Source of the DNA: a virus
Lineage: Duplodnaviria; Caudoviricetes
Reading direction: 5' to 3' (one strand)
Virus record (IMG/VR): IMGVR_UViG_2600255140_000004
Coordinates: 1 to 64,000 of that record
DNA: 64,000 nt
Shown here piece after piece: positions 6,758 through 57,488 of this stretch. Both the position numbers and the translations under genes were made by a program. The first letter of the stretch is position 1. The number at the start of each line of letters is the position of its first letter. The notes below the pieces were generated by a model. It was not told the origin of the DNA and ran no database searches. It was given only the letters and a program-made list of their open reading frames with translations.

Positions 6758-7269
6758 AGTATCCCTCTTTTCCAGAAATTCTTTTCTACATTGTATCACA
6801 ACGTAGCTGGTTTGTGAACTATTCATTGTCTAAAGCCAATGGGTCAATGGGTGGTTTATTTATGAAATAAAAGTTATTCGATGGAGTGAGCGAAACAAGG
6901 AAGATAATATCGTTTTACTTTCAGCGTGATAATTAAAATCCTTTTGGATGCCACGGGCGGAATCCCGCTGTCGGCGGCGCGTAATGCGCCGTCTTTCGCG
7001 CTTGGAGGACGTTGCCTGTATTCTCTGCAATACGGGAGAACCGGGTTCCGAACCCATATTCCCGCGCCAATAAAACACAAATTTATTCTCTTTGTGGATT
7101 TTTATTCTTGATAACGGTATAGCTAGAAAAGGAAAGGCAGATGCTATTCCTATGTCTGAATAAACTTGTGGAACAAGAAAATGGAGTTAAACAGATTGAC
7201 GGATTAAAAAAAAAATCATATACTTATTATAATGGAAGGATACAATTTATAAGGAAGGGGGAAAAGCCC

Positions 7270-7764
7270 ATGATGAAAGGGATTGACGTTGCTCGGTATT
7301 TTCTTAGTCTTGATAAGAATGGCGAAATTTTCAACAAGATTCTTCGCACACAAAACGGAAGAACGTTTTATGAGGGAAATGCAAGGCTGAACAAGTATAT
7401 GCATTTGGCTCAGAATATTTATATTGCAAAATATGGCGCTCTGTTAATGGACTCGGTTTTCTACGCATATGACAATGGGGCAGTTGACCCTGTAGTACAG
7501 GAAAGCTATTCTGTACTTTTGGAGCGCCGGGATCAGGCGGTTTCCCTACAGGAAAGAGAACAACGATTTTTAGACAGTATATTCAAGGCTTTCTATAATG
7601 CGACGTTAGACGAACTGATTGAGTTATCCCATGAGGATTCAGAGTGGGTGGATAAACATGGGTATTACCGTAAGGAGGATCAGAAAATGGACTCCATGGC
7701 ACGGAAGGCAGAATATGAAAGACAGTATGCGGATATGATAAAAATTCTTGAGAGGATGGGTTGA
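7270..7764 (+). CDS. Panacea/SocA (DUF4065) antitoxin
   Basis: IDVARYF...RLNKYMHLAQ...FYAYDNGAV...ELSHEDSEW. Confidence 0.75.
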   Translation: MMKGIDVARYFLSLDKNGEIFNKILRTQNGRTFYEGNARLNKYMHLAQNIYIAKYGALLMDSVFYAYDNGAVDPVVQESYSVLLERRDQAVSLQEREQRFLDSIFKAFYNATLDELIELSHEDSEWVDKHGYYRKEDQKMDSMARKAEYERQYADMIKILERMG

Positions 7765-8536: not shown

Positions 8537-8848
8537 GGTATATTGTTGCCAAATCAATCCCGTCACTTACTCGTGAGTTTATAGTGGAGTTAAGTAAAAA
8601 AATATTGCAGCCAAGCAATATTTAGTGGTTTCGGCAGCCAAAACTATCTGTAGGATTAAACTGTCTAATAAGCCGTGCTGGGTCTCGTCCTGCGCGGCTT
8701 ATGGAGGTATGGAGCGTAAAGCTTGTTCCTGCTGATTCCGGAAAAGGACTCCTTGGATGGGTTCTTTTTTTAGTTGCCGTTTTCAATCTTATTTTCACAA
8801 ATGACCAAATTATCCTTGAAAAGAAAATCATTAAAGGAGGATTTTGTC

Positions 8849-9541
8849 ATGAATGGAAAAAAGAAATTTGACAGAAACAAGGTACAGGGATTGATTGACA
8901 TGAAAGACTGGAAAGGACTGCGGGAATATGATTTCCGTGGTGTGGATCTGAGCAGTATGTACTTTTGGCAGGCGGAGCTTGACGGCATGGATTTTAGCGG
9001 GGCTGACCTTTATTGTGTGACCTTTAGCGGCACAACCCTGAAAAACGCGAATTTCAGGAACGCTTCCTTACGATGCGTGGATTTATGCAGTTCAATTATT
9101 GGTGGCGCAGATTTCCGTGGTGCGGATATTGCTAGGGTGGAATTCCCCGACATGTATATGGACGGGGTCATCATGGATGAGACGACATCCCACTTCCATA
9201 CGCATTGCCCGGAAGAGGGCGGGTTTACCGGCTATAAAAAGGCGTGTACCCTCACGGAACATCCGTATATTGTCGAGCTGAAGATCCCGGCACATGCCTT
9301 ACGTTCCAGTGCAACAACAAATAAATGCCGCTGTTCGGAAGCGGAAGTGATGTCCGTTACCCGCCTGGATGGCACAGACGATGGCACAGATATTGTGAGG
9401 AGCTGGTGGAACCCATATTTTCTGTATAAAGCCGGGGAAACAGTCAAAGCAGATGGTTTTGATGAAAACCGCTGGAACGAATGTGCTCCTGGTATCCACT
9501 TCTTCATGACGAGGGAAGAGGCTGTAGATTATGTTTTCTGA
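8849..9541 (+). CDS. Pentapeptide-repeat + DUF5758-like protein, copy 1
   Basis: A(D/N)(L/F)xx repeats; CPEEG.F.GYK...KCRCS...ECAPGIHFF.TREEA. Confidence 0.85.
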   Translation: MNGKKKFDRNKVQGLIDMKDWKGLREYDFRGVDLSSMYFWQAELDGMDFSGADLYCVTFSGTTLKNANFRNASLRCVDLCSSIIGGADFRGADIARVEFPDMYMDGVIMDETTSHFHTHCPEEGGFTGYKKACTLTEHPYIVELKIPAHALRSSATTNKCRCSEAEVMSVTRLDGTDDGTDIVRSWWNPYFLYKAGETVKADGFDENRWNECAPGIHFFMTREEAVDYVF

Positions 9542-18071: not shown

Positions 18072-18185
18072 AGGCAATGGGGACTTTTGCTGTTTTCTCC
18101 ATCATTGCAGTGATGGGGAGTGGTACAGCTTTTCGCTTACATATCCAAATTATCATTGAAAAACAATCATTAAAGGAGGATTATC

Positions 18186-18854
18186 ATGGATGAAAAAATG
18201 ACATTTGACAGGAACGAGGTAGAAAAACTGGTTGCGGCAAAAGACTGGAAAGGTCTGCTGGAATATGATTTCAGGGGTGCGGATCTAAGCGGAATGTGCT
18301 TTGGGGGTGCGGATCTTGCCGGTATAGATTTTAGCGGTGCCGATTTTAGTAATACGGATTTTCAGTGGGCATCTTTACGAAATGTAAATTTTTCGTCTTC
18401 ATTCCTTGAGGGTGCGGATTTCCGGGGCGCGGATATTACAGGCACATATTTCGCCGACGCATGCATGGACGGCATCATCATGGATGAAACGACATCTCAT
18501 TATCACACGCGTTGCCCGGAAGAGGGAGAATTTATTGGCTATAAACAAGTGCGTGACAATAAATACGGGCCATACATTGCTGAGCTGAAAATCCCAGCAC
18601 ATGCCTTGCGCTCCAGCGCAACCTCAAATAAATGCCGATGCTCGGAAGCAGAAGTGATGTCCATTACCCGTCTGGACGGTACAGACAATGGCATAGATAT
18701 TGTGAGGAGCTGGAGGAATCCAGATATTCTGTATAAAGTCGGGGAAATGGTCAAGGCAGACGGCTTTGATAGGAACCGCTGGCATGAATGCGCTCCTGGT
18801 ATCCATTTCTTCATGACCAGGGAAGAGGCTGTAGACTATATACTCTGGACATAA
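18186..18854 (+). CDS. Pentapeptide-repeat + DUF5758-like protein, copy 2
   Basis: Clear paralog of 8849-9541. Confidence 0.85.
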   Translation: MDEKMTFDRNEVEKLVAAKDWKGLLEYDFRGADLSGMCFGGADLAGIDFSGADFSNTDFQWASLRNVNFSSSFLEGADFRGADITGTYFADACMDGIIMDETTSHYHTRCPEEGEFIGYKQVRDNKYGPYIAELKIPAHALRSSATSNKCRCSEAEVMSITRLDGTDNGIDIVRSWRNPDILYKVGEMVKADGFDRNRWHECAPGIHFFMTREEAVDYILWT

Positions 18855-18935
18855 AAAAGAGAAGCCGAGAGGCTTCTTTTTTGCGGAAATAACCAAATTA
18901 TCCCTGAAAAAACAATCATTAAAGGAGGATTTGAT

Positions 18936-20540
18936 ATGAATTACAAACAGAGAAATGCAGCAGTGACGACAGTAGAAGAATGTGTGCTTATGCGCGCGGG
19001 CCTTGGCAGGCAAGATTTTTTTTGCCCGGAAGAAGAGCCGGAAATCCCGAATTTGAAGGAGGCAGTTGCTTTTTTTAGGGCAAATATGCAGCTTCCGGTT
19101 ACAGTAATCGGTGACTATGATGCAGACGGGATCTGCGGTACGGCAATCCTGTACCACGGGCTCAAACGGATGCAGAAAGAAGCGCGGCTCCGGATTCCGA
19201 AACGTTTCTCAGAAGGCTACGGTCTGTCGGAGAAGATCATAGACGAGATTGAGGCCCCTGGGCTTGTGATCACGGTAGATAACGGGATTGCCGCTTTGGA
19301 TGCGATAAAGAAAGCAAAAGAAAAAGGGCTTTCCGTTATCGTGATCGACCATCATGAGCCGGTCTGCAGGGATAACAAAGTAGTGCTGCCGTGCGCGGAT
19401 GTGGTTGTTGACCCAAAGACGGGCAATTCGTACAGGGATTACTGTGGAGCCGGGCTGGCATACCGGTTCGTGAAAGAACTCGTCGGCGGGGATATGAACA
19501 ACCTGCTTGTCCTTGCGGCAGTTGCAACGGTTGCGGATGTGATGCCCCTGACAGGCGCCAACCGTATCCTTGTGCGCCGCGGCATTGAGGCGCTTAACAA
19601 AGGCTATGGCGTTCCGGGGCTGAAAGCTCTGGCAGGAAACAACAAGAAAGAAGGGCATTTTGATGAGGGTGATTTCGGATTCTGGTTCGGTCCGATCTTT
19701 AACGCATACGGGCGATTGGAAGACGGTGGCGCGGCCAAGGTGCTGCGGTTGCTGACGATGGGGTACAATGACCCGAAAATGCCTGGCTGCGTCAGGATGC
19801 TGATGGAGATGAATGAACGCAGGAAAACACTTGCAAAAGAGCAGGCGGAGCTTGCCGAGGCGCTGATACAGGACATGGATGGAAACGCAGAACGCCCGAT
19901 CGTGGTTGGGGATTCCTTGTTCGATCCGGGAATTGTGGGTATCATTGCCGGGAAACTGGCAGAGAAATACTATTCCCCTGCAATCGTGTTCAGTGAAAAG
20001 GATGGGATGCTGAAAGGCTCCGGGCGCTCCATCCCAGGGGTGAGCCTTAAGGAAACGCTGGACCGGATCAGCGGCTTGATGCTCAGTTACGGCGGGCATA
20101 GTGGCGCTGCCGGACTTACAATACATGCTGAAGATTTTTTAAAGTTCAAAAGCGCGTTTGCAAAGAGCATTGGCAGGCTCCCAGATGTGCCGGATGTCAT
20201 GTATTATGACCTGGACCTTAAAAGGCATGAAATCCCTTATGTCATGGAACAGCAGAGGTCGCTCGCACCGTTTGGAGAGGGCAATCCGAAACCGGTGTTC
20301 CGCATAGTGTTCAATACAGCAGACTTCATTTATGCACGGATGGGCGATGGAACACACTTCTCACTGACGGAACGCAGCCAGGACGGTGCCCCGGCATTTT
20401 CTGTAGTCGGTTTTGGCATGGCAGGGATGTATGAAAAAATGAATCCCGAAAGGATTGAGTGCCTGGGATGCCTTAACGAAAACTGGTATAATGACAGGCT
20501 GTCCTATCAGTTTGAACTTGCGGCGTTTACTGGATTGTAA
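18936..20540 (+). CDS. recJ: RecJ ssDNA exonuclease
   Basis: GDYDADG, TVDNG, DHH, GGHSGAAG, PFGEGN. Confidence 0.92.
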   Translation: MNYKQRNAAVTTVEECVLMRAGLGRQDFFCPEEEPEIPNLKEAVAFFRANMQLPVTVIGDYDADGICGTAILYHGLKRMQKEARLRIPKRFSEGYGLSEKIIDEIEAPGLVITVDNGIAALDAIKKAKEKGLSVIVIDHHEPVCRDNKVVLPCADVVVDPKTGNSYRDYCGAGLAYRFVKELVGGDMNNLLVLAAVATVADVMPLTGANRILVRRGIEALNKGYGVPGLKALAGNNKKEGHFDEGDFGFWFGPIFNAYGRLEDGGAAKVLRLLTMGYNDPKMPGCVRMLMEMNERRKTLAKEQAELAEALIQDMDGNAERPIVVGDSLFDPGIVGIIAGKLAEKYYSPAIVFSEKDGMLKGSGRSIPGVSLKETLDRISGLMLSYGGHSGAAGLTIHAEDFLKFKSAFAKSIGRLPDVPDVMYYDLDLKRHEIPYVMEQQRSLAPFGEGNPKPVFRIVFNTADFIYARMGDGTHFSLTERSQDGAPAFSVVGFGMAGMYEKMNPERIECLGCLNENWYNDRLSYQFELAAFTGL

Positions 20541-22116: not shown

Positions 22117-23529
22117 TTAGCGGAACTCAACGATGTAATTCAGGACAGTTGCTGATTCGTCGTAAAAGACAATCTCGTCATTGCGTAGCGCATTTCCAGC
22201 ATGTGCATGGAGGCAGTCCGCGCCTTTGCCGAGAGTTTCCGTGCGGTAGTTTATGCTGCCGCTCCATGTATGCACATCCCACGGCGTGCCGTAAGCAGTT
22301 GCATACAGGCCCATAAACGCGCAGTCATCATGCCCGTTTGCCCATGACGTGCCATGATAGCTCGTATAGTTCCATGATTTCATGGATGAGGGGGCAAAAT
22401 AAATGCCGTCGGAGAACATCTTGCCGGTAATGATAGCGTCTGGTTTCAGGAGAAGGCCATTCCGGATAATGGATATCCAGTTCTGGTTCCTTGACCCGTG
22501 CCAGAGCTGTTTCACTGTCTTGATGCCGTGCTTTTTCAGATATTGGTCGAAACGTGCCTGCTGTGCCTTCGGAATCACACGGTAAATGTTCTTCACTTTT
22601 GGACGAAGGGAGTCGGAAAGCTTTGAAAGCACCTGTTTTTTCTGTTTTTCCGTTGCCTCGTATACTTCAATGCCTGATGATTCGAAATCGTTTGGCATTG
22701 AGCCTTGATGCGTGGTCATGCCGTCCATGGCCATCAATAAGTCGCTTTCCCTCTGTAGGATTCGAGGGAAGTCGTTTGTGCTTTTTGCCATCAGGTCTCG
22801 GACTCCTGAACCGTCGCCTGTGCGTACAGGACGCTGCAGGATTGCGATCAGCTGCAGCAGTGAATCATTGAATTCTTCCGTGGTCTTCGCCGTCCGCATT
22901 TTCCCGATCAGTGATTCTGATTTTTTGAGGATTGCATGGGTGATCGGCACGCTGACACGCGCTTCCCTGACTGCTGTTTTGGAAAAACGCTGCAGGATTG
23001 CAAACAGTCTGGCAGATGCGCTTTCTGCCTGTTTCTCACATGTTTCTTCCGGCTTTTCAGGCTTGCGTGTCGTTGCATCAGGGGTAAGGTAGACATCTGA
23101 GTTGTCTATATACCCTTTGGAAAGTTTCTCATAATACTTGACCCAGAACATACTGAGAGGGTACATATAAGAGCGCTCTCCGAATAACGCACCTTTCGCT
23201 ACTCCCATGCGCCCGTATGATGCCTTGACTTCGTTGCCGCATGGCTCAAGCTTGTAGAACTTGTATGCATTCCGCCCTTCATCCACACAGGTCAGGTACC
23301 GGCTTGGGTATGAATCGTCAAGGATGCTGTCAGGGAGCGTGTTGCAGTTTTCGGTAATGAAACGTGTCCCGCTCCGTTCCCTGATTGAGTAATTGACTTC
23401 GCCTGCTGTGCCGCAGATTACCTTTACTGTTCCTGATGGCTCTTTGCTGAGCATGGCAGCAACATCTTTGTAAAAGTCCGTTACGTCCACTGTTTTCTGA
23501 GTTCCTTGTGTCTGGTAATAGATTTCCAT
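22117..23529 (-). CDS. WGR-domain PARP-family ADP-ribosyltransferase
   Basis: KFYKL...YGRMG (WGR-like); LWHGS; GKMFSDGIYFA; KSWNY; NDEIVFY; AAGGAGG RBS before ATG 23529. Confidence 0.85.
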   Translation of the reverse strand: MEIYYQTQGTQKTVDVTDFYKDVAAMLSKEPSGTVKVICGTAGEVNYSIRERSGTRFITENCNTLPDSILDDSYPSRYLTCVDEGRNAYKFYKLEPCGNEVKASYGRMGVAKGALFGERSYMYPLSMFWVKYYEKLSKGYIDNSDVYLTPDATTRKPEKPEETCEKQAESASARLFAILQRFSKTAVREARVSVPITHAILKKSESLIGKMRTAKTTEEFNDSLLQLIAILQRPVRTGDGSGVRDLMAKSTNDFPRILQRESDLLMAMDGMTTHQGSMPNDFESSGIEVYEATEKQKKQVLSKLSDSLRPKVKNIYRVIPKAQQARFDQYLKKHGIKTVKQLWHGSRNQNWISIIRNGLLLKPDAIITGKMFSDGIYFAPSSMKSWNYTSYHGTSWANGHDDCAFMGLYATAYGTPWDVHTWSGSINYRTETLGKGADCLHAHAGNALRNDEIVFYDESATVLNYIVEFR

Positions 23530-23574
23530 TTTCTTTTCCTCCTTTAATGATGTTTTTCTCTTCGAATCTGAGTA

Positions 23575-23800
23575 CAGGCAGACATTAAGATTCCCAAAAA
23601 AGAGCTGATCCAGGAATATGAAAACCGGGGAACGACGGACAGGATACGCAGCCTGCTCTATGCAGCAAAGGCATATTGGGATGAGCAGGGCATAGAACCG
23701 GGGAACACGGAGGATGTGATCCATGAAATCAACCGTCTGCATCCGGACTGGAAACTACATAAGGAAACGGAATGCAAGGTGTTCCCTGTGTGGATGTAGC
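23575..23800 (+). pseudogene. 5'-truncated gene remnant
   Basis: Open frame DIKIPKKELIQEYE...VFPVWM* with no start; abuts the PARP leader. Confidence 0.4.
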
Positions 23801-41306: not shown

Positions 41307-41380
41307 TGGAAGCAATGGGGCTCGAACCCATGACCTCTCGCGTGTGAGGCGAACGCTCATCCCGGCTGAGCTATGCTTCC
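41307..41380 (-). tRNA. tRNA-Val(CAC)
   Basis: GGAAGCA/TGCTTCC acceptor; GCTC/GAGC D-stem; TTCGC-CTCACAC-GCGAG anticodon arm; ATGGG-TTCGAGC-CCCAT T-arm; no encoded CCA. Confidence 0.93.
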
Positions 41381-47453: not shown

Positions 47454-47545
47454 TGCCCTTTTGAGCATCTAAAAGAGGACGCATTATAGAAATAGTGAGG
47501 GAGTCCATAGGCAGAGGCGTGGACTCCTGTAAAATGATAGGGATC

Positions 47546-47944
47546 CTAACTGGATTGCCCAGTGGCTAGGTCAAAATATTTCCAAATGCATTTTGCATCG
47601 TCTTCCGATTTTGAAAACAGGTAGGGTTCCCGTTTGTCGTTGAATACTAAAAGGGTGTCGTCAAATTGATACATATGATACCGGTTCCCCCTTCGGAAAA
47701 TATATTTTTGGCCAGTATCAAATATGTTGTGGATGCATTTGATATCCATATGTTCCAGGATTGGGCTCCCCTTCCGTATTTGCCGTTCTAAAACGCACAT
47801 CCAATACGTGCAGCTGGCGCGGTATGGATTGCTGTGTGCAGCGCCGGATTGCCGCTCCTGATCCATGTAAGCAAGCAGCTGCCTTAACTCTTCATCAGTA
47901 TATTCCCGTAGTTCTGTCAAAGTCATATTATATATAGGATTCAT
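47546..47944 (-). CDS. Hypothetical protein
   Basis: GAGGGG RBS. Confidence 0.6.
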   Translation of the reverse strand: MNPIYNMTLTELREYTDEELRQLLAYMDQERQSGAAHSNPYRASCTYWMCVLERQIRKGSPILEHMDIKCIHNIFDTGQKYIFRRGNRYHMYQFDDTLLVFNDKREPYLFSKSEDDAKCIWKYFDLATGQSS

Positions 47945-48225
47945 AGTTTCCCCTCTGGTATTAATAAGTAGGATATATTTTAGCACAACCGTAACGCCCC
48001 ATCAACAGATTGTTGGCGACCGTAGGTGACTTCAGGGGGATTGTGCTGGAAGAAAGCAAAAAGAGCGGCGCTGATGCCGCTTTTTTGCATGGAACCGCTG
48101 GAATATGAGGCGCTTTCCAAATGTTCCTGTTCTATTGTAGCAGGAAGAGCTTTGGCACACAAGGAGGTATTTCTGTTTTCCAAAAACCCATATTAAGGAT
48201 GATTCCAATGGAGGGGGAAGGGGAA

Positions 48226-48918
48226 GTGAAAAAAATTTTGCCTATCATATTGCTGGTCATAACTACAATCACTACTACTGGGAACAAGGCAGATAGCAGA
48301 GCGCCTGATCCACCCGGAGAAAAAGTGCTGTATGGGCGGGTGTATGAACGTGTAGGCGAGACGGTTTCTGGAGCGGGCATCTATTCCAATCCTGAGAATA
48401 ACCGGGCAAAGCACTATGTCCTTGCAGCTATCGAAGATGCGGGGCTCCACGATGGGATGAGTGACTTTGAAAAAGCATGCGCGGTCAATGCGTATCTGGT
48501 GGACGAGCTTTCTTATGCGGATTATGCGACAGTGGAGGGGTATCCATATAAAGAAGACTATGTGCCGTTCACGGACTACTGCTTGCTTTCGGACCATGCG
48601 GTATGTGCCGGGTATGCGGAAGCGTTCCAGTCCATGTGCTGTGCGCTGGGGATTGAATGCTGGTATGTGACCGGATATGTCAGCAAAAGAGGGGAAATCT
48701 GTTATCACGCATGGAACTGCGTTGTGATCGGAGGCATGAGATATTATATGGATCCGTGCCTCAATGACGGATCAGATAATGCTTTCTGCATGTCCGAAAC
48801 ACTGTGGGCGACCCATGCAGTAGAGAAGGAGCACGAGATTTTCCGGATCAGCGGGCAGCGGCTGCCGTTCCCGGATTTGGTTCAGGAAAGACACCTGTCC
48901 GGGTGTGTGGTATACTGA
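48226..48918 (+). CDS. Secreted transglutaminase-like protein
   Basis: Signal peptide; VCAGYA, HAWN, YMD triad. Confidence 0.85.
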   Translation: MKKILPIILLVITTITTTGNKADSRAPDPPGEKVLYGRVYERVGETVSGAGIYSNPENNRAKHYVLAAIEDAGLHDGMSDFEKACAVNAYLVDELSYADYATVEGYPYKEDYVPFTDYCLLSDHAVCAGYAEAFQSMCCALGIECWYVTGYVSKRGEICYHAWNCVVIGGMRYYMDPCLNDGSDNAFCMSETLWATHAVEKEHEIFRISGQRLPFPDLVQERHLSGCVVY

Positions 48919-48931
48919 CGCCAGAGTTAAG

Positions 48932-49104
48932 GACGGACGGGCGGTAAGCCCTTTACGATAGATTTTTCCTCCTATCAGGAGCCGTAGGAAAGCCTGCGGC
49001 TCTGGATATTGACGAGACGGGGCCTTTGCCCCTATACATAAATTGACTACTCCTATTAATGATCGGAAAGGCGGGGCTTGGCAGATGGCTGGTCCCGTTT
49101 TTCC
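48932..49104 (+). ncRNA. Two tandem copies of a putative sRNA motif
   Basis: GACG(A)GA-hairpin-TAC..ATT..CTCCTAT-hairpin; TGgTATACT promoter at 48908. Confidence 0.6.
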
Positions 49105-49171
49105 GTGAATGGGATTTCACGAATTCCTCAAATTAACTATGGAAAATATTCATTATAAGGAGGAAAGGAAT

Positions 49172-49864
49172 ATGAACAGATACTATTACACTTATGGGAA
49201 CGGGAACGGGAGCGATGGCGGGGGATGGACTGAGGTTGTCGCACAGGACATGCGGGAGGCTCATGAAGTTTTCAAAAAACACCATCCGTGCCTTTCCCAC
49301 GGAGTCCTCAATTGTGCGGATTATTATACGGAGGCGACATTTAGGGGAACCGGAATGCGGGAAGGGAATTTCGGCAGGAAATGCAGGGAAGTCCTTTTTT
49401 CAGAAACAGCGCAGAAAGAAGGTGCGCTTATCCGTTATCGGTTTTTGACAAAAGCAGAGGACTATCGCCCGTTAAAGGATATGGAAAAAATCCGGATGCC
49501 GTGGTGGTGCACTGCGGAAGGAACCGGGGTTTCCATTATCGTCTGCTATCTGCCCCTGATGTTGGCACTCCACGATTTCTGGCCGGATGCTTTTGACATT
49601 GAATGGGAAGATAAAACGGAGATTGAGTACACAGACCGGTTTGTAAAGCCGGACTGGATGCCGGAGCCGACAGAAAAGGAAACGCTATGGGCGTATGAAA
49701 TCCTTGATCTTGCAAAAGGCATCGTGTGGGCTCCGGACAGGGAGGCGGCAGAGGTAAGGGTACGCAGACACTATGAAAATTACCCGTCTTATAGCCGGCA
49801 TACCCAAGTCCGTATCAACGTTCCTGCTTGCGACTATGAGAATGGCGTATATGAGTGGAGGTGA
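49172..49864 (+). CDS. Hypothetical protein
   Basis: Strong RBS. Confidence 0.7.
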   Translation: MNRYYYTYGNGNGSDGGGWTEVVAQDMREAHEVFKKHHPCLSHGVLNCADYYTEATFRGTGMREGNFGRKCREVLFSETAQKEGALIRYRFLTKAEDYRPLKDMEKIRMPWWCTAEGTGVSIIVCYLPLMLALHDFWPDAFDIEWEDKTEIEYTDRFVKPDWMPEPTEKETLWAYEILDLAKGIVWAPDREAAEVRVRRHYENYPSYSRHTQVRINVPACDYENGVYEWR

Positions 49865-49868
49865 CCGT

Positions 49869-50216
49869 ATGAGAGATTCAAGGTTTTTAGAGGACATTGA
49901 AGACGCTGCCCTTTTGATGCAATACTTATATGAAGGGAATACGGTTACGGTAAAGAATGCCATCGGAGTGCCATTGGAGATAACCATGGATGAAGAAGGG
50001 TACATTTTCCAAAAGAACTTGAATTTCCCAGAGTCTCCCAGGCATTTGAAAGCCTACCAGCTTCCGGAATGGCTGGGGATCATTGACCAGTTGAAAGGAC
50101 AGCCAGAGGAAAATCTGGCGGATGCGAACACCGGAAATGGGTTCCAAAATCAATGGGATGAAATACGTTTCATTACCCTTGCAAACCGTTCCCTACGCAA
50201 AGTGAAAAATCGCTGA
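49869..50216 (+). CDS. Hypothetical protein
   Basis: GGAGGT RBS; terminator follows. Confidence 0.65.
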   Translation: MRDSRFLEDIEDAALLMQYLYEGNTVTVKNAIGVPLEITMDEEGYIFQKNLNFPESPRHLKAYQLPEWLGIIDQLKGQPEENLADANTGNGFQNQWDEIRFITLANRSLRKVKNR

Positions 50217-50368
50217 CTGGCGATAGGTAAAAGAAGCCATCCTTGGCTTCTTTTTTTAAGCAGTGGCCCAATGCTCCGGGATGAAAACCATATTATTGAT
50301 AACACTTCGTGCCACATGAAGGCGGATATGCCTGGGTTTGTATAATTAAGGAAAAAGGAGGATTTTTT

Positions 50369-51256
50369 ATGCTCATTATTATTGACGGGAGTTCTATGCT
50401 GTCATCGGCATATTATGCCACGCTGCCTAAAGGCGGCGCAGGCGAGATCATGCACACAAGGGATGGGGTATATACGAACGGTGTCCTTGGCATGTTACGT
50501 TCCATATTTAAGATCATCAGGGAGCAGAAACCGGAGTACCTCGCATTCGCATTTGACCAGACTCGGAATACGTTCCGGCGTGAGATATACCCTGCCTATA
50601 AGGCGACCCGGAAGGAAACCCCGGAACCGTTAAAGCAGCAGTTTGCCACTATGCAGCATATCTTGGAAATCTTCGGTTTCCGTATTTTCTGTTCCGGGTG
50701 TTATGAGGCGGACGATTACGCGGCAAGCCTTGCAGAGCGTTTCTGCAGGAAGGTGCCGGAAACATTGCTGGTCACACGGGATATGGACTATCTGCAGCTT
50801 GTGGACGACGCAAGACGGATACGGGTACAGTTAAAGAAAGTGTACACGGAGAAGGAACTGAAGGAGGATTACGGCCTGTCTGAAGGAAGGCAAGTCGTGG
50901 AGTATAAGGCGCTGGTAGGGGACAAGTCAGATAACATTCCCGGCGTGAAAGGGATAGGGCCAAAAGCGGCTGTGCCGCTGTTACAGAAATACGGGTCAGT
51001 CACTGCGCTTTATCAGGCAGTGGATGCGGGTACGCTTAACTGCAGAACCCTTGGCATTCGGAAGGACGTTTTCCGCTGCCTGGAAAAGGGGCGGGAATCC
51101 GCATTCCTATCCCTGCGCCTGGCGGAAACAAAGCGGGATATCGACCTTGGCGTATCACTTTCCGACCTCCGATACTGCATCAGCCAGGACACCGTGCGCG
51201 AGGTCATACGCAGCTATGAGCTGGATTCACTAAAAAATGTTATGGGAGGGAAATAA
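50369..51256 (+). CDS. 5'-3' exonuclease/flap endonuclease (PolI N-terminal-like)
   Basis: IDGSS, FRREIYPAYKATR, EADD, GDKSDNIPGVKGIGPK. Confidence 0.92.
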   Translation: MLIIIDGSSMLSSAYYATLPKGGAGEIMHTRDGVYTNGVLGMLRSIFKIIREQKPEYLAFAFDQTRNTFRREIYPAYKATRKETPEPLKQQFATMQHILEIFGFRIFCSGCYEADDYAASLAERFCRKVPETLLVTRDMDYLQLVDDARRIRVQLKKVYTEKELKEDYGLSEGRQVVEYKALVGDKSDNIPGVKGIGPKAAVPLLQKYGSVTALYQAVDAGTLNCRTLGIRKDVFRCLEKGRESAFLSLRLAETKRDIDLGVSLSDLRYCISQDTVREVIRSYELDSLKNVMGGK

Positions 51257-52201
51257 ATGCGGGAAATAATAGTTGCCCTGTTGGTGGGGCTTGCCCTGTG
51301 CGGGTGTTCCAGGGCGGAGTATGAAGACGAAAATATCCGGATCACACAGTATACAGGAGTAGAATCAGGAGCGCTATCGCCTACGGCGATCACAGATGCG
51401 GATGTAGATGCAGAAATTGGTGAAATCCTGGATGCGAACGCAGAAAAGGCCGAGACATCACGGGCGGCCGGGAAAGGGGATATTGTTGTAATCGACTACA
51501 CGTCGGAAACGGACAGCAGTCTGGATCTTGAGCTGCCAGTCACCGCGGACGGAGGGCTCCAGGAAAGCCTTGCCGGGCATAAGAAAGGGGAGCGCTATGA
51601 ATGGGTGGATCCGGTTGGCAATATATATACGGTTACCGTAAAAATGGTCATGGAAAAACATGTGCCGGAGCTTACGGATGCATTTGTGAAAACAGTGTCC
51701 CGAACAACAGGAACGGTAAAAGAATTCCGGGGGGAAGTCAAAAAGCAGCTTGAGGATAGGGCGGAAAGGGAGTATCGGGCGCAGCTGGCGGACGGGGCTT
51801 TTGATGCGGTCCTCGCGAATACCGAGGTCCTGCAGTATCCGGATTTGACGGACATAGAGAATGAAATAAAGAGTCAGTACCAGGAGGCTGCAAACGATAG
51901 CGGCGTGGATTATGAGACATATATCCGGGATTATATCGGACAGAGCTTGGATAAATTCGATGAAGGGATTCAGGAGGCGTCAAAGGCGCAGGCGAAAGAA
52001 ACCATGGCTGTGCGCGCAATCGCGGACCAGGAAAAACTGATTCAGACGGAAAAGGAGCAGGCAACAGCATTGGAGGCGCTTGCCAAGGAATACGGGTATG
52101 AAGATGCCGCTGCGATGGAGAAAGATATCGGCAGGGACCGGGCGCTGAGCTATGCCATGGCATACGCTGTCAGGGAATGGCTCGCAGACCATGCAAAATA
52201 G
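51257..52201 (+). CDS. Trigger-factor-like lipoprotein
   Basis: Lipobox LCGC; GDIVVIDY; PELTDAFV; TF C-terminal domain. Confidence 0.75.
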   Translation: MREIIVALLVGLALCGCSRAEYEDENIRITQYTGVESGALSPTAITDADVDAEIGEILDANAEKAETSRAAGKGDIVVIDYTSETDSSLDLELPVTADGGLQESLAGHKKGERYEWVDPVGNIYTVTVKMVMEKHVPELTDAFVKTVSRTTGTVKEFRGEVKKQLEDRAEREYRAQLADGAFDAVLANTEVLQYPDLTDIENEIKSQYQEAANDSGVDYETYIRDYIGQSLDKFDEGIQEASKAQAKETMAVRAIADQEKLIQTEKEQATALEALAKEYGYEDAAAMEKDIGRDRALSYAMAYAVREWLADHAK

Positions 52202-52253
52202 AATTCGGCTCAGGAAAATGACGCATGCGGGAATATGATAAACTAAAGACATA

Positions 52254-52340
52254 GACGAGATTGGCGTAAGCCGTATACGAATAGATTGTCCTCTTTTAAT
52301 GAAATGGGAAACGGCGGGGCCTTGCGGCTCCGCTTTTTCC
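52254..52340 (+). ncRNA. Third copy of the putative sRNA motif
   Basis: GACGAGA-GGCGTAAGCC-TATACGAATAGATT-TCCTC-terminator. Confidence 0.6.
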
Positions 52341-52393
52341 TGCCAAATTTTTGGGTTGCTGACAGCACCGTGCCGGAGGCTGTTGTAGACCGC

Positions 52394-52990
52394 ATGCGTA
52401 TGGAATCACACCTGACCGTCCGCAAGACGTGTGACAAAGCGGTACGTCTGATGTACTGCGAGCTTTTGGCGGCGGAGCATGGCGTTGACAGGGAGTTCGT
52501 GAAACGTGCGATGGACGTGTTCGGGTGTTCTGACCGCTACTGCCGCCAGTTCCGTGATGTCATAGTGAACGGAACGCCGTATCTGAAACAATGCCTGTAT
52601 ATGGGCGAGAAGATTCGGGTCGGTGAGGCTGCACATATCGCGAATACCGCTCCGGGGGACGAGGCCATGCAGAAAGTTCTTCTGAAAGAACATCTGGAAA
52701 AGCGTGAGATGAAACGCAAGCTTTCGGCAAGGAGCGTGACGTTCCCATCCATGGGAGCCAATACAATGCCGTGCAAGCCACCGGCATCTATTACGGCGGC
52801 GTCTGATTCAGAGATGCCCTGTAAGCCAGCAATTCCTGAAATGCCGTGCGAGGAATCCCCGGCTGTCGGGATGCTGCTCCAGAGTATGCGGCAGTTCTGC
52901 GCGAACGGCAAGTTAAACCTGCCGGATGTTTCCAAACAGGAACTTTTGTCACTATGCCACAAGCTGATGTCCATGTATGGGGAGGTGTAG
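52394..52990 (+). CDS. Hypothetical protein, possible ParB/KorB-like HTH
   Basis: A..FGCSDRY...G...L...G.....A..IA pattern; start uncertain. Confidence 0.5.
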   Translation: MRMESHLTVRKTCDKAVRLMYCELLAAEHGVDREFVKRAMDVFGCSDRYCRQFRDVIVNGTPYLKQCLYMGEKIRVGEAAHIANTAPGDEAMQKVLLKEHLEKREMKRKLSARSVTFPSMGANTMPCKPPASITAASDSEMPCKPAIPEMPCEESPAVGMLLQSMRQFCANGKLNLPDVSKQELLSLCHKLMSMYGEV

Positions 52991-52992
52991 GA

Positions 52993-53373
52993 ATGAAAGC
53001 AGGATGTTATCTGATCTTCGTCCGCAACGAAGCCACGGGCTGTCTCCGGCTTGCTGCGACAGGGAATCCCCAGGCATGTGTGGAGAAAATGGAAAACATG
53101 TCGGGATGCGATATGAGCATCGTGTTCCAGATTGGCTATCCCAGCGTGGAGGAAGCGACGGAACGCAAGGATGTGATGAAAGTAGCGCTTGCGCCATACA
53201 AAATAAAGGCGGCAGTGAACGGGAAGAAACGTTCGCGGTTTGGAAGCTGGTTCCTCCCCGAGGCATGGGGGCATCTGGCCGTTGCGCCTGAAGTGCTGGA
53301 AGAGGCAGTTGAAGAACTGTATAATTTTTACGATGGCGAGTTATGGATGCTGCAGGATTCCCTCCCTGTCTGA
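52993..53373 (+). CDS. Degenerate GIY-YIG/T5orf172-like protein
   Basis: T.NP...GSWF pattern; GGAGGT RBS. Confidence 0.5.
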   Translation: MKAGCYLIFVRNEATGCLRLAATGNPQACVEKMENMSGCDMSIVFQIGYPSVEEATERKDVMKVALAPYKIKAAVNGKKRSRFGSWFLPEAWGHLAVAPEVLEEAVEELYNFYDGELWMLQDSLPV

Positions 53374-53437
53374 TGGGTTAAAAAAGAGACGCTTTGGCGT
53401 CTCTTTTTTAGACGGCAATACAGGAAACACGTCCTGT

Positions 53438-54319
53438 TTACTCATTCTGGGCTTTTAATAATGTATTATCGGAATCCTTAAAAAGGGCGGCCAGCATTTC
53501 CGGCATATAGTAGCGCCCTTCCAGGATTTGTGTGTATTCGCCTGCCTTGCTGACCAGTTCAGGGGAAATGTTGTTTAGGAAAGCATGGGTGACGACAAGC
53601 TCGTCCTTACATTTGCGCCTGCGCCGTCTGAGACATCGGATCATCTGTATCAGCTTATGTTCCGTTGTGTCATCATATTCATTGAATTCGATTGCATGTT
53701 CGATGATCGTGATTAGTTTCTCCGTTTTCCTGCACTCTTCATTCAGCGCCTTTTCGCGTTGGCCAATCCCGTCATAAAAGAGAACGAGGGCATGTATCAG
53801 ACCCAGGGAGCTGTTTATAGCTGACGGCTGCGCGAAAGGGATGAGAGCCAGCATGTCCGGCGCGTTTTCTGAATATATGGCGGGATCGATATCCGTGTAT
53901 GATATTTCTTCCGGCAGGGGGTCAGGAATGTCATCCTCTTCAATGGGCACAGTCATCCATGTGTATTTCCGGAGCAGCGGATGGGTGGAACATTGGTTGT
54001 TAAGGACATTTTTTGCTTTTTCCTCTTCCCACTTCCCGGCATGTGCGGGGTTTGATGTCAATGACAGGTCATTTGCCAGGTATCCGCGTTCGCACTTGAT
54101 TTGCAGCATTATGGGTTCCGTGTACTCTTCGTCCCGTGCCTCAATCCGCCATTTCATCTGTGCTTTTTGGGGAAACTTCGAACGGAACGCCAGCAGGACA
54201 GGGAATGCACGGGTTTCTGATGCGAATTTCAGGGCGCACCCGCTGTCTTTCGTCATTTTTGTGCTGTCAGGGTCTTCGCTTGACAGATAATTGATGCCAT
54301 CTGTAATGTAATAAACCAT
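53438..54319 (-). CDS. Hypothetical protein
   Basis: AAGGAG RBS; C-terminal H.IEF...RR..KDE. Confidence 0.7.
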   Translation of the reverse strand: MVYYITDGINYLSSEDPDSTKMTKDSGCALKFASETRAFPVLLAFRSKFPQKAQMKWRIEARDEEYTEPIMLQIKCERGYLANDLSLTSNPAHAGKWEEEKAKNVLNNQCSTHPLLRKYTWMTVPIEEDDIPDPLPEEISYTDIDPAIYSENAPDMLALIPFAQPSAINSSLGLIHALVLFYDGIGQREKALNEECRKTEKLITIIEHAIEFNEYDDTTEHKLIQMIRCLRRRRRKCKDELVVTHAFLNNISPELVSKAGEYTQILEGRYYMPEMLAALFKDSDNTLLKAQNE

Positions 54320-54425
54320 AAAAATCTCCTTTCTGTGTTTTTCAGGCATAATATGGGGGATTTGTTCCATAAAGCGGCTTTTTTTCGCCAAACTGTATAA
54401 TGTAGCCATAGGAGGAGAAAAGCAT

Positions 54426-54617
54426 ATGAGAGATCTTTCAGAGATGCTGCAGGAGTTTGACGGCATCTGCCGGAGGTATCCAAAGCAGCATGTGGTCACG
54501 CTGTGTAACCGTTATTTGGGGTTGCTGAATGAAGAGGAGTTTCAGGTGGCAGACAAATATTATTACTGGTTCGTAATGGTTGGTGATGCCTCCCGGAGCA
54601 AAGATTTGATTTATTAG
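54426..54617 (+). CDS. Small hypothetical protein
   Basis: AGGAGG RBS. Confidence 0.6.
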   Translation: MRDLSEMLQEFDGICRRYPKQHVVTLCNRYLGLLNEEEFQVADKYYYWFVMVGDASRSKDLIY

Positions 54618-54626
54618 GAGGTTTTT

Positions 54627-56510
54627 ATGAACGAGGCACAATTGGAATGCGTACATACGATAAATGGACAGGTAATCGTAATTGCCTGTCCAGGAGCAGG
54701 CAAGACGACGACACTGCTTGCGAGGATAAATCACATGGTGAAAGAGGCAGGGATAGATCCGGAACATATTTTGATGATGACATTTACACGTTCGGCAGCA
54801 GCAGAAATGCGTAAACGTTACGAATCGGAACCGGGTTCCAAAAAGGGCGTGACATTTTCCACGATCCATGCGCTTTGCCTGGCAATCCTGATCCGCTACA
54901 GAGGAAGGCCGGAGATTATGAGTGATGATGAAGAACGTGATTTCTTTTTCTCCATGCTCCGGGACAGTGCGGCAAAGTACCCGTCAATGGACATCCCCAA
55001 GGGATACCGGACGATGCTCGCGGCGGTTAGTGACCGTGACCAGTTTATCAATGACCTTGTTCTTGATATCGGGATGCACAAAAACAATCCAGGCAAAAAG
55101 TTCAAACTGAACAGCACTCCCGACAAGGCGCTGTTCCAGTTCCTGTGGGACCGCTACGAGACCCTGAAAAAGCAGCAAGGGAAGATTGACTTTGATGATA
55201 TGCTGACACAGGCATATGAAGTCCTTCTTAATGACAAGCGGGCTCTTGCCGAGCTTAGGGATAAATACCGGTATATCCAGGTGGACGAGTACCAGGATAC
55301 CAATTATGTGCAGCGCGACATTGTTTACCTGCTTGCCGGCGAGAATGGGAATCTTGCTGTTGTGGGCGATGATGACCAGTCTATTTATGGGTTCAGGGGT
55401 GCGTGCCCGGAAGTGATGCTGGGTTTCCCCGACGATTATCCGAGGGCGAAGGTCATCCGCATGGGTACGAATTACCGATCCGCAAGGAACATCATCGCGT
55501 GTGCAGGGCAGATGATCGCAAAAAATCGCAACCGGTATGCGAAAGATTTCATTGCGGCCAGGCCGGAGGCGGGCGAGATTGAACTTACCCTTGGCGAGAC
55601 AAAAGCAGAAACGCACAGGATCATTGCAGGCCGCGTGGAAAGCCTGTTAAAGTCAGGGATGCAGGATAGGGATATTGCGGTTTTATACCGCACGAACAAG
55701 GAAACGGAAGGGATTGCGGGCGCGCTGATCCGGCGCGGGATTGAAGTACAGGTTGCGGACGGGGTTACGAACAGGTATGAACATTGGATCTACCGTGATA
55801 TCTGTTCCTATTACCGGCTGGCAAATGAAATCGGCGGGGAGGGTGATCTGGCGAGGATCCTTAACCATCCCCAGCGGTACCTGCAGTCGGACAGGTATGT
55901 ATGGATGCAGACGCTGGCGGAGACAGAACAGCAGATGTGCCAGGCAGCGTATGAAATGAACGGTGAATTTTGGAAGGTGAAGGGTGCAGTCAAAGAGATT
56001 GAAGACTTGTTCCGGCTCCTGCGGAGCCTGAAAGGCAAACCGCCCAGGACATACATGAGCACGCTGTATGTGGCTTACCGCAGATATCTGAAGGATTATG
56101 CGAATTTCAGGGGCATGGACATGGAAGAGCTGACATCTGTATGGGAATCATATCTGTCTGATGTGAAAAGCCTGCCGTCAGGCGCGGAGCCGTGGCGGGA
56201 GTGGGAGGCATATGTAAAGAGGTATGAGCATGCAATCCGCCAGGCCCGGAAGTCCCAGGCGGGAGTGCTGCTGTCCAGCATGCATAAAGCGAAGGGACTT
56301 GAATGGGAACATGTGATCGTGGCAAACTGCGTTGAGGGGAATATCCCGTACCAGAACGAGAAACGCCCCTGTGACATAGAAGAGGAGCGCCGTTTGTTCT
56401 ATGTGGCATGTACGCGGGCAAAGAAACATCTTGAGCTGGTCGGGTATAAGAGCAGGAGCGGGAAACATGTGAATATCAGCCCGTTCATCCGGGAACTGAC
56501 AAAGGCGTAA
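54627..56510 (+). CDS. UvrD/PcrA-like SF1A helicase
   Basis: ACPGAGKT, VDEYQD, GDDDQSIYGFRG, NYRS, HKAKGLE, EEERRLFYVACTRA. Confidence 0.93.
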   Translation: MNEAQLECVHTINGQVIVIACPGAGKTTTLLARINHMVKEAGIDPEHILMMTFTRSAAAEMRKRYESEPGSKKGVTFSTIHALCLAILIRYRGRPEIMSDDEERDFFFSMLRDSAAKYPSMDIPKGYRTMLAAVSDRDQFINDLVLDIGMHKNNPGKKFKLNSTPDKALFQFLWDRYETLKKQQGKIDFDDMLTQAYEVLLNDKRALAELRDKYRYIQVDEYQDTNYVQRDIVYLLAGENGNLAVVGDDDQSIYGFRGACPEVMLGFPDDYPRAKVIRMGTNYRSARNIIACAGQMIAKNRNRYAKDFIAARPEAGEIELTLGETKAETHRIIAGRVESLLKSGMQDRDIAVLYRTNKETEGIAGALIRRGIEVQVADGVTNRYEHWIYRDICSYYRLANEIGGEGDLARILNHPQRYLQSDRYVWMQTLAETEQQMCQAAYEMNGEFWKVKGAVKEIEDLFRLLRSLKGKPPRTYMSTLYVAYRRYLKDYANFRGMDMEELTSVWESYLSDVKSLPSGAEPWREWEAYVKRYEHAIRQARKSQAGVLLSSMHKAKGLEWEHVIVANCVEGNIPYQNEKRPCDIEEERRLFYVACTRAKKHLELVGYKSRSGKHVNISPFIRELTKA

Positions 56511-56546: not shown

Positions 56547-57488
56547 TTAATCCTGTGCAAAAATCTGGCTGTGCAGGATACGGGAAGTATCTTCCTGAAA
56601 TACGACATTTCCGGCCTTTTGGCGTTTTGTGTGGGTTTTATTGAAGAGACGTTGTATATCTTTGCTGCTGCCCAGTTTTACAATTGCACGGTTATAGATG
56701 GATTTGACTTCCTTTAAGGGAATCCCGGTTTCCAAATGGATGTTTTCAAAAGATTTTTCCTTATGCCCGTCCAGATTGATGCGCCTTTTGAGAATATCCC
56801 ATTCCTCTGGCTCCAAAACCTCAATTACAGCTCTGCTTATTACTTCCTCCCGCTCCTGTGCAAGCATCATATCTTCCGGATTCGGTATTTTGGATACGAT
56901 TTGCGTACAGCTCTCATCGTCATCTACCGCGACATAATTTGTGTTATACCGGTATTGGAGCGTTGACCGTACTACTTTTGGGGAAAGCCCCGTGCGCGTT
57001 GCGACCATGTCGTCCGTCCATTGGATTCCCTTCGATTCGTAATGCTGGATTGCAGCTATGACCTTCCGCGAATTCTTGATGTCGTATGGGGAGAGGTGCA
57101 GGGTGTTCTTGGAAAGATATGTAGATATCACCTCCCTGAAATGCCGGACATAGAAGGTGGTAGGCGTGGAGCGCAGCGGATCATAAGAATCCAATTTTTC
57201 GTAGAATTTCTCCGCAAGCCCCTGCTGGATATCCTTCCATGCGTCTGAATCTACGCGGTAGCGGACGAGGATCTGTTTCGCCTCCTTCATGCCGAATTTG
57301 AGGACAGATGCAAATAAGTCGGCTTTGATCTTGTCCTCGTACTGTTCCTCTTCATAAGTGAGTGCCTGTCCGGAAGCACGTTTTTCCTTAAATGTTTCCA
57401 GTTTCTTTTTGCGTAGGTAGAACACAACCTGTTCCTTCGTCAGTGTGAGCTGTCCATAGTCGCCAATTTTTGCTGTTTCGTTTGCCAT
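56547..57488 (-). CDS. Divergent sigma-70-family RNA polymerase sigma factor
   Basis: Region 2-like D..Q......YDP..STPTTF; region 3 HTH; region 4 L...E..IL..R..L...SF..I...GI....V. Confidence 0.7.
   Translation of the reverse strand: MANETAKIGDYGQLTLTKEQVVFYLRKKKLETFKEKRASGQALTYEEEQYEDKIKADLFASVLKFGMKEAKQILVRYRVDSDAWKDIQQGLAEKFYEKLDSYDPLRSTPTTFYVRHFREVISTYLSKNTLHLSPYDIKNSRKVIAAIQHYESKGIQWTDDMVATRTGLSPKVVRSTLQYRYNTNYVAVDDDESCTQIVSKIPNPEDMMLAQEREEVISRAVIEVLEPEEWDILKRRINLDGHKEKSFENIHLETGIPLKEVKSIYNRAIVKLGSSKDIQRLFNKTHTKRQKAGNVVFQEDTSRILHSQIFAQD

Follow-up and report, generated by a model that had tools for sequence, protein, structure and literature searches.

A terminator-ended RNA-like module in two full copies and one partial copy, and its complementarity to a repeated gene leader

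The repeated module and its copies

The DNA studied here, referred to as the window, is a 64,000-nucleotide (nt) stretch (positions 1 to 64,000 of IMG/VR virus record IMGVR_UViG_2600255140_000004) that corresponds to C2:405736-469735, on contig C2 of a 4.46-Mb, four-contig genome. Two of its intergenic gaps contain a short RNA-like module in three copies, denoted U1, U2 and U3 (Table 1). All copies are intergenic and lie on the plus strand, which is the coding strand of the surrounding array of co-directional genes. Mouse-gut metagenome runs contain DNA near-identical to the window region. Because contig C2 carries a type IV secretion system (T4SS) coupling-protein gene (C2:329586-330797) and has no match to the HK97-type capsid family PF05065, the sole structural phage marker looked for, we infer that the window belongs to a large mobile element, of conjugative type, in a mouse-gut bacterium.

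Table 1. Positions in the window of the units, their parts and associated features
Feature	Position	Strand	Details
Gap with U1 and U2		+	between transglutaminase-like gene 48121-48918 and unknown gene 49172-49864
Candidate sigma-A promoter	48888-48916	+	AAGACA, 17 nt, TG-n-TATACT; 9/12 matches, TG present (promoter scan)
U1, 5' half only	48932-48978	+	GACGGAC (GACGGA 48932-48937), hairpin GGGC-GGTAA-GCCC 48940-48952, TTTACG, ATAGATT, TTTTTCCTCCTAT
U1 second hairpin	48974-49007	+	11-bp stem, no U-tract (RNAfold)
U2 5' box and seed	49011-49064	+	GACGAGA 49011-49017, P1 GGGGC-CTTT-GCCCC 49019-49032, TATAC 49033-49037, ATAAATTG 49038-49045
U2 seed parts	49050-49054; 49056-49062	+	CTCCT; TTAATGA; predicted unpaired (probability 0.69-0.82)
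U2 intrinsic terminator	49065-49104	+	long bulged stem, then TTTTT and CC (RNAfold)
Degenerate M-box leader with RBS of gene 49172-49864	49117-49171	+	nhmmer M-box profile, E 1.4
Gap with U3		+	between trigger-factor-C-like lipoprotein gene 51257-52201 and unknown ORF starting at 52394 or 52400
U3 5' box and seed	52254-52305	+	GACGAGA 52254-52260, P1 (T)GGC-GTAA-GCC(G) 52262-52273 (GUAA loop), TATAC 52274-52278, ATAGATTG 52281-52288
U3 seed	52289-52302	+	TCCTCTTTTAATGA; antisense of M-box core with one mismatch
U3 intrinsic terminator	52306-52340	+	GGGAAAC, 9-bp GC stem, loop TTGC, TTTTT, CC
M-box leader	8787-8851	+	before pentapeptide/DUF5758 gene (Pfam)
M-box leader	18120-18188	+	before second pentapeptide/DUF5758 gene (Pfam)
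M-box leader	18871-18938	+	before RecJ-like gene (Pfam)
Weaker M-box leader	23537-23590	-	before PARP-domain gene, E 0.031
Sigma-70 region-4 protein	56547-57488		encoded near the units
bp, base pairs; ORF, open reading frame; RBS, ribosome-binding site.

The full module, as found in U2 and U3, is ~90 nt in size. It begins with GACGAG(A/G), continues through a GC hairpin of 3-5 bp with a variable loop (P1), TATAC, 0-2 nt and ATA(G/A)ATTG to a CU-rich motif (CTCCT or CCTCT) and TTAATGA, and ends, 2-4 nt further on, in an intrinsic terminator composed of an A-tract, a GC stem and a U-tract; ~25-35 nt between P1 and the terminator are predicted to be unpaired. An earlier reading made from the letters alone (the sequence-only reading) had described the three unit positions, the 5' hairpins, the CU-rich stretches and the pattern TTAATGA..GGAAA..GGCGGGGC..TTTTTCC common to units 2 and 3, and all of these are present as described. 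It had further ended each unit with a terminator-like hairpin, which is indeed a terminator in U2 and U3; a terminator scan calls that of U3 at 52313-52334 (9 pairs, 7 of them GC), in agreement with RNAfold. U1, by contrast, comprises the 5' half only, and the hairpin that follows lacks a U-tract and is therefore not an intrinsic terminator. The statement that stems vary while pairing is kept applies to stem length and loop: a GGC/GCC core is common to all three stems, so that the variation inside the window is not covariation, and a hairpin-preserving sequence change appears only in comparison with the metagenome relative L120 described below.

Partition-function folding of the units alone predicts that the CU-rich motif and UUAAUGA are unpaired with probabilities of 0.66-0.88 in U3 and 0.63-0.82 in U2 and its L120 relative; for the CU-rich motif itself, the predicted values are 0.66 (U3) and 0.82 (U2). 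In longer transcripts, the accessibility of this motif drops to 0.47-0.59 (0.47-0.53 for U2 in the full leaders), and in a predicted 182-nt leader the CCUCC of U1 is mostly paired (probability of being unpaired, 0.36). Two coding candidates within the units were rejected. A minus-strand ORF of 28 codons in U2 stands behind an RBS-like site, and the relative reads ATT GTA TAA there; a plus-strand leader peptide starting from the ATG of TTAATGA has no Shine-Dalgarno (SD) sequence, the peptides differ, and the frame shifts between copies.

The genome contains two full copies and one partial copy of this module, and their proposed kinship is borne out by local alignment. The scores of the pairs U2-U3 (35) and U1-U3 (31) were each reached by none of 5000 shuffles (largest shuffled scores, 28 and 25, respectively) and lie above those of all ~3000 random pieces of the window (largest, 28). 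The U1-U2 score of 17 is not significant, being reached by 376 of 5000 shuffles; thus, U1 belongs to the family via U3, which acts as the hub. In the 4.46-Mb genome, a four-sequence nhmmer profile retrieved only U2 and U3 (E ~1e-24), with U1 as the best other match (E 1.3), and in single-sequence nhmmer searches U2 and U3 were reciprocal best non-self matches, at E values of 0.9-2.7 only. A covariance model, the building of which had been suggested as a check on element and host, again recovered U2 and U3 and, weakly, U1 (15.2 bits, E 0.2 in the window); neither this model nor the nhmmer profile found further copies in the genome. MAFFT places the P1 arms in different columns, and RNAalifold and the covariance model thus hold only two P1 pairs. 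The best non-unit match of the model in the window, at 7211-7276 on the minus strand (17 bits, E 0.085, GC 0.30), lies inside a SocA/Panacea-domain ORF and is probably spurious.

The units stand outside any catalogued Rfam 15 family. A correspondence to a catalogued motif such as skipping-rope, which we take to be among the 4227 Rfam families, had been considered and did not hold up: no unit matched at the gathering score, and the sole match at that score in the whole window is the tRNA gene at 41307-41380. When E values up to 10 were admitted, region 48700-52500 gave six weak matches, of which 'drum' alone (16.7 bits, cut-off 43) overlaps a unit. In IMG/VR, a pattern for the 5' box matched 52 stretches and a second pattern six, all of them chance matches with neither a GC hairpin nor a terminator; the first pattern asked for one or more nt between TATAC and ATARATT and misses the U2 type of spacing, whereas the second allowed 0-3 nt. 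Among 400 genomes of the bacterial family, the 5'-box pattern matched five, compared with ~9 in a reversed control, and none of them with the hairpin. BLAST returned short chance matches only, both for U1-U2 in 300 genomes of the family and for U3 in 400 genomes of the order. Nothing was found in PLSDB with U1-U2 in distant mode, or in a phage collection and PLSDB with positions 42000-64000 in near mode. For the trigger-factor-like gene upstream of U3 and for ORF 52394-52990, no relatives were found in IMG/VR, and in the genus the trigger-factor-like gene has only paralogues (29-37% identity). The complement of the 5' box matched elsewhere in the genome at chance level only. Finally, a scan of metagenomes with the 5'-box pattern yielded 37 stretches, 35 of them chance matches and two true ones.

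These two true matches, L120 and L124, are near-identical metagenome contigs that carry U2 and U3; they are 99.6% identical to window positions 49129-55882 and 92.6% identical to 47545-49125. In L120, P1 of U2 differs at no fewer than five positions and by an insertion or deletion and still folds, and the stem of the U2 terminator is kept via wobble and compensatory changes. The longest stretches of U2 left unchanged are the 14 nt of the seed ACTCCTATTAATGA and the 3' arm together with its U-tract. A single base separates U3 from its L120 counterpart and changes the basal pair of P1 from U-G to C-G; the same letter is found in run X16. The 5' box of U1 is replaced in L120 by an unrelated hairpin, TCCTATCAG being kept, and the sequence at the place of the second U1 hairpin is different, RNAfold drawing an 8-pair stem there. 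The -10 element of the candidate promoter (48908-48916) is likewise kept. As P1 of U2 has changed but remains foldable while seed and terminator are kept, selection seems to act on hairpin potential, seed and terminator, a pattern that would fit an RNA better than a DNA site. The step in identity from 92.6% to 99.6% at the U2 terminator suggests a recombination breakpoint at this position. Directly after that terminator (window junction 49125/49129), L120 carries a 2.65-kb AT-rich insertion (L120 6749-9397) with ORFs of 624 and 105 amino acids on the opposite strand, neither of which has a Pfam or PADLOC match; the site may be a cargo hotspot.

The M-box leader and the U3 seed

This part of contig C2 contains a second unannotated repeat, denoted M-box, that covers more genes than the units do. 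The M-box is a ~65-nt module made up of a terminator hairpin, GGAAATATCCAAATTATCCCTGAAAAG, ~4 nt, the invariant ATCATTAAAGGAGGATT and 2-7 nt before an ATG; its 3' end, TCATTAAAGGAGGA, is repeated ahead of start codons across this part of C2. Ten strong copies (E < 1e-9) and ~5 weaker ones all fall within C2:334501-480394, one ~150-kb stretch. The M-box has no Rfam match; outside this genome, it was found in 0 stretches of IMG/VR and, among 400 genomes of the family, in one, by way of a generic 23-nt RBS match. Five pentapeptide/DUF5758 paralogues each stand behind an M-box (8849-9541 and 18186-18854 in the window, and C2:334568, 353731 and 354513), an assignment that was checked with Pfam for the two window copies and judged by N-termini for the other three; as a guess, these paralogues may be DNA-mimic, anti-restriction-type proteins. 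One further gene behind a strong copy encodes a protein that looks macro-like, judged by its N-terminus; its leader lacks the exact M-box core. From their N-termini, we take the products of further M-box genes to be Gp157-like, ligase-like, nucleotidase-like and primase-like. The PARP-domain ORF (22117-23742, minus strand) is listed as starting from 23742 (541 amino acids), and the RBS in its M-box points to a start at 23529 (470 amino acids). A degenerate M-box sits between the U2 terminator and gene 49172-49864. The M-box could combine a promoter with a common leader and so serve a factor specific to the element.

Within the window, TCATTAAAGGAGGA is found four times exactly and once in antisense with one mismatch, this antisense match being the U3 seed; the number of such matches expected by chance is 0.03. 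As RNA, UCCUCUUUUAAUGA pairs with UCAUUAAAGGAGGA over 14 nt, through 13 Watson-Crick pairs and one G-U pair. Targets were predicted from RNAduplex energies only, on 4797 candidate start sites defined by a regular expression (GGAG(G), 4-10 nt, a start codon and at least 80 codons). Among these 4797 sites, nine M-box sites rank 1, 2, 3, 6, 13, 14, 28, 39 and 132 for U3, and the energies of their duplexes range from -23.2 to -17.0 kcal/mol, compared with a background of -10.9 kcal/mol (standard deviation 2.7). With a longer U3 seed, M-box sites are found at ranks 2, 4, 11 and 12. Sites inside the element account for 154 of the 4797 candidates, yet 7 of the 20 best and 14 of the 50 best sites for U3 are among them. 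Thus, the idea that the units are small RNAs directed against RBSs gains pairing support in silico for U3, with weaker support for U2 and none for U1; for U3, the trans-acting version is partly supported by these predicted duplexes, which lend it concrete form. An action as anti-SD element in cis, on the next gene, was rejected: of 4797 sites, the start at 49172 ranks 700 for U1 and 793 for U2, and that at 52394 ranks 4092 for U3. Moreover, U2 and U3 stand before genes that are unrelated to each other, which argues against a gene-specific regulator in cis.

Possible functions of the units

We tentatively favour, at somewhat less than an even chance, the reading that U2 and U3 are sibling base-pairing small RNAs directed against RBSs, U3 being aimed at the M-box site. 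The units would then be RNA modules at the ends of transcription units. U2 and U3 would each give a short RNA that ends at a strong intrinsic terminator and bears the 5' GC hairpin with its conserved flanks, and the unpaired CU-rich anti-SD motif, together with UUAAUGA, would cover RBSs in trans. By covering the invariant UCAUUAAAGGAGGA site of the M-box leaders, U3 would lower the translation of that gene set together. With regard to transcription, the sequence-only reading had pointed to two upstream -10 boxes. TGgTATACT at 48908-48916 is indeed a good extended -10 element with a -35-like hexamer; this candidate promoter overlaps the stop codon of the transglutaminase-like gene and has a predicted start near 48923. 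TATGAT at 52234-52239, however, has no acceptable -35 element and is not among the promoters that the scan listed. As the promoter at 48908 lies upstream of U1, U1 and U2 would form one ~180-nt RNA, whereas for U3 an origin as the 3' end of the upstream operon's transcript would be likelier.

Several observations weigh against this reading. The link between U3 and the M-box was recognized post hoc; a generic SD/anti-SD match makes up half of the duplex, and because the M-box copies are one sequence, the match of U3 to them counts as one event. For U2 and its relative, M-box sites reach only ranks of ~70-400, at -14 to -17 kcal/mol, and U1 shows no preference for them. All members of the family come from a single element lineage and therefore offer no deep covariation; in L120, two registers of P1 are possible, and hence no specific compensatory pairs were counted. 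The conserved 5' box (GACGAG, hairpin, TATAC and ATAGATTG) is left without a role beyond stability or processing, and U3 has no convincing promoter of its own. Four metatranscriptome runs, analysed as contigs, cover the region at a depth of ~2-8, with DNA carry-over possible; one RNA-library contig spans the U2 terminator (48940-49255) and others cross U3. Such contigs give no strand, ends or level of RNA and count neither for nor against transcription.

Each full unit consists of a conserved box, then a strong terminator within ~30 nt, just upstream of a gene, an arrangement that would also suit cis-acting attenuator or insulator modules. Their terminators would divide the gene array, and the 5' box would bind a termination or read-through factor, in the manner of an anti-antiterminator hairpin or of a loading site resembling nut. 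We regard this as rather unlikely. Elsewhere in the element, terminators directly precede M-box leaders, and control by termination and read-through is therefore plausible; the RNA-library contig across the U2 terminator would agree with it, and internal terminators that are overcome by antitermination are described for conjugative elements (PMC11658703; see also PMC8191782). RNAs lacking the 3' arm fold a long-range helix between P1 and the 5' arm of the terminator in three of three units tested, but shuffled sequences reach this complementarity in 29%, 3.7% and 14% of 2000 trials. The loops (GGUAA, CUUU, GUAA and UUU) differ, unlike loop-specific protein sites, and the box is present on only two or three of the many terminators of the element. 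Such modules would leave the conserved seed block and the M-box match unexplained. A riboswitch or attenuator leader finds no consistent class of downstream genes either, and none of the five loci with relatives of gene 49172-49864 found among genome contigs has the motif upstream.

The units might instead be ordinary terminators plus duplicated intergenic sequence, that is, function-free remnants of recombination or gene conversion in a mosaic element. The confinement of the family to one lineage throughout the searches of family and order genomes, IMG/VR, PLSDB and phages would fit such an origin, as would the partial state of U1, its replacement in L120 and the mosaic nature of the region, with its two levels of identity (99.6% and 92.6%) and its 2.65-kb insertion. 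Nevertheless, substitutions in U2 are uneven, with a hairpin that changes yet folds next to a 14-nt seed and a U-tract arm that are unchanged, and the top match of the U3 seed is a site that the same element repeats without variation; we consider it unlikely that the units are mere remnants.

The near-constant spacing between GACG and TAC (18, 20 and 18 nt in the window, 19 in L120), together with the TTGACG, 18 nt and TATACA of U2 and the sigma-70 region-4 protein encoded nearby, could point to a promoter or operator that acts at the DNA level and serves an element-specific factor, with GACG as -35-like and TATAC(A/G) as -10-like element 18-20 bp apart and a palindromic spacer, which would yield either a ~55-nt terminated RNA starting at the seed or no noteworthy RNA. 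Sigma-A promoters need a final T in the -10 hexamer. This possibility is very unlikely, given that the -10-like hexamer has no T at position 6, that the promoter scan listed none of these sites, that the TTG of the -35 element is not conserved (TTGACG, TAGACG, AGGACG and CGGACG), that the box occurs only two or three times and is absent before the other genes of the element, and that a spacer that changes while remaining hairpin-capable suits an RNA better than a protein operator.

The base-pairing reading can be taken further, with U3 as a master translational repressor encoded by a mobile element that would gate at least nine leader-bearing genes at once, much as the RegA repressor of phage T4 does but made of RNA; we consider this extension unlikely. 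The gated set would comprise genes for DNA-mimic-like pentapeptide proteins, PARP-domain, RecJ-like and primase-like proteins and others, which would, for example, be silent in the resident host and fire on transfer, and the M-box leader would be the cis element that goes with U3 in a regulon of new architecture. If U3 pairs with the M-box leaders, a single small RNA acting on a common leader would let one element control dispersed genes of accessory and possibly anti-defence function, and the gene set would provide a testable regulon in a gut commensal family for which, to our knowledge, there is almost no small-RNA biology. If the units are attenuators instead, they would mark control points of a large conjugative-type element; they are unannotated either way.

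Related systems and the surrounding element

In working principle, the closest known kinds are the sibling CU-rich small RNAs of Firmicutes that occlude SD sites (LhrC of Listeria; RsaE/RoxS) and the immunity RNAs of phages. As in the first kind, the genome has two or more related copies (U2 and U3 in full, U1 in part), of which two stand in tandem; the stretch around the CU-rich motif is predicted to be unpaired, intrinsic terminators form the ends (at U2 and U3, with a promoter candidate for U1-U2 only), and pairing with AG-rich RBS regions is proposed. The units differ in that they have no sequence or Rfam relation to these RNAs, are borne by a mobile element, and have a seed that reaches past the SD by 8 nt, into a leader specific to the element. 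The immunity RNAs of phages P1/P7 (c4 RNA) and P4 (CI RNA) are likewise small RNAs of mobile elements, on the same strand as their targets, that pair around the RBSs of the element's own genes. Theirs are processed from the transcript of the target and have one or two targets, whereas the candidate target site of the units is repeated before at least nine genes, up to ~120 kb away.

The order of promoter, tandem RNA units, terminator and gene resembles that of type III toxin-antitoxin loci (ToxIN, CptIN). The repeats of such loci are near-identical, whereas U1 and U2 align with a score that 376 of 5000 shuffles reach, and U3 is a single copy. The proteins encoded downstream of the units have no ToxN/AbiQ-type toxin or defence match in Pfam, PHROG functions or PADLOC. 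The alternative that the units are protein-sponge or antitoxin-mimic RNAs, also raised by the sequence-only reading, thereby found no support: none of these proteins has a Pfam or PADLOC match at all, and the product of gene 49172-49864 is the sole one with a PHROG match, to a family of unknown function.

In PMC11658703, the long co-directional operons of conjugative elements are described as interrupted by intrinsic terminators that act as insulators, and canT, the processive antitermination element of Tn916, as needing ~340-452 nt and acting once per operon. The setting of the units is similar to that of canT and of conAn of pLS20, namely co-directional operons of Gram-positive conjugative elements with intrinsic terminators. 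Unlike canT, the units are ~90 nt in size and repeated, and each stands directly before its own terminator.

By its gene content, the region resembles mobile-element DNA, with genes for a Tn916-type integrase, Rep_trans and Mob_Pre proteins, orphan Dam- and Dcm-type methylases and HNH nucleases. Further genes of the region encode RecD2-, RecJ- and UvrD-type proteins, a 5'-3' exonuclease, a T-Q-ester adhesin, a DUF4317 protein and an NlpC/P60-CHAP protein. The tRNA gene at 41307-41380 (minus strand, 62 bits), with the methylase genes on one side and the HNH-rich segment on the other, could have served for integration.

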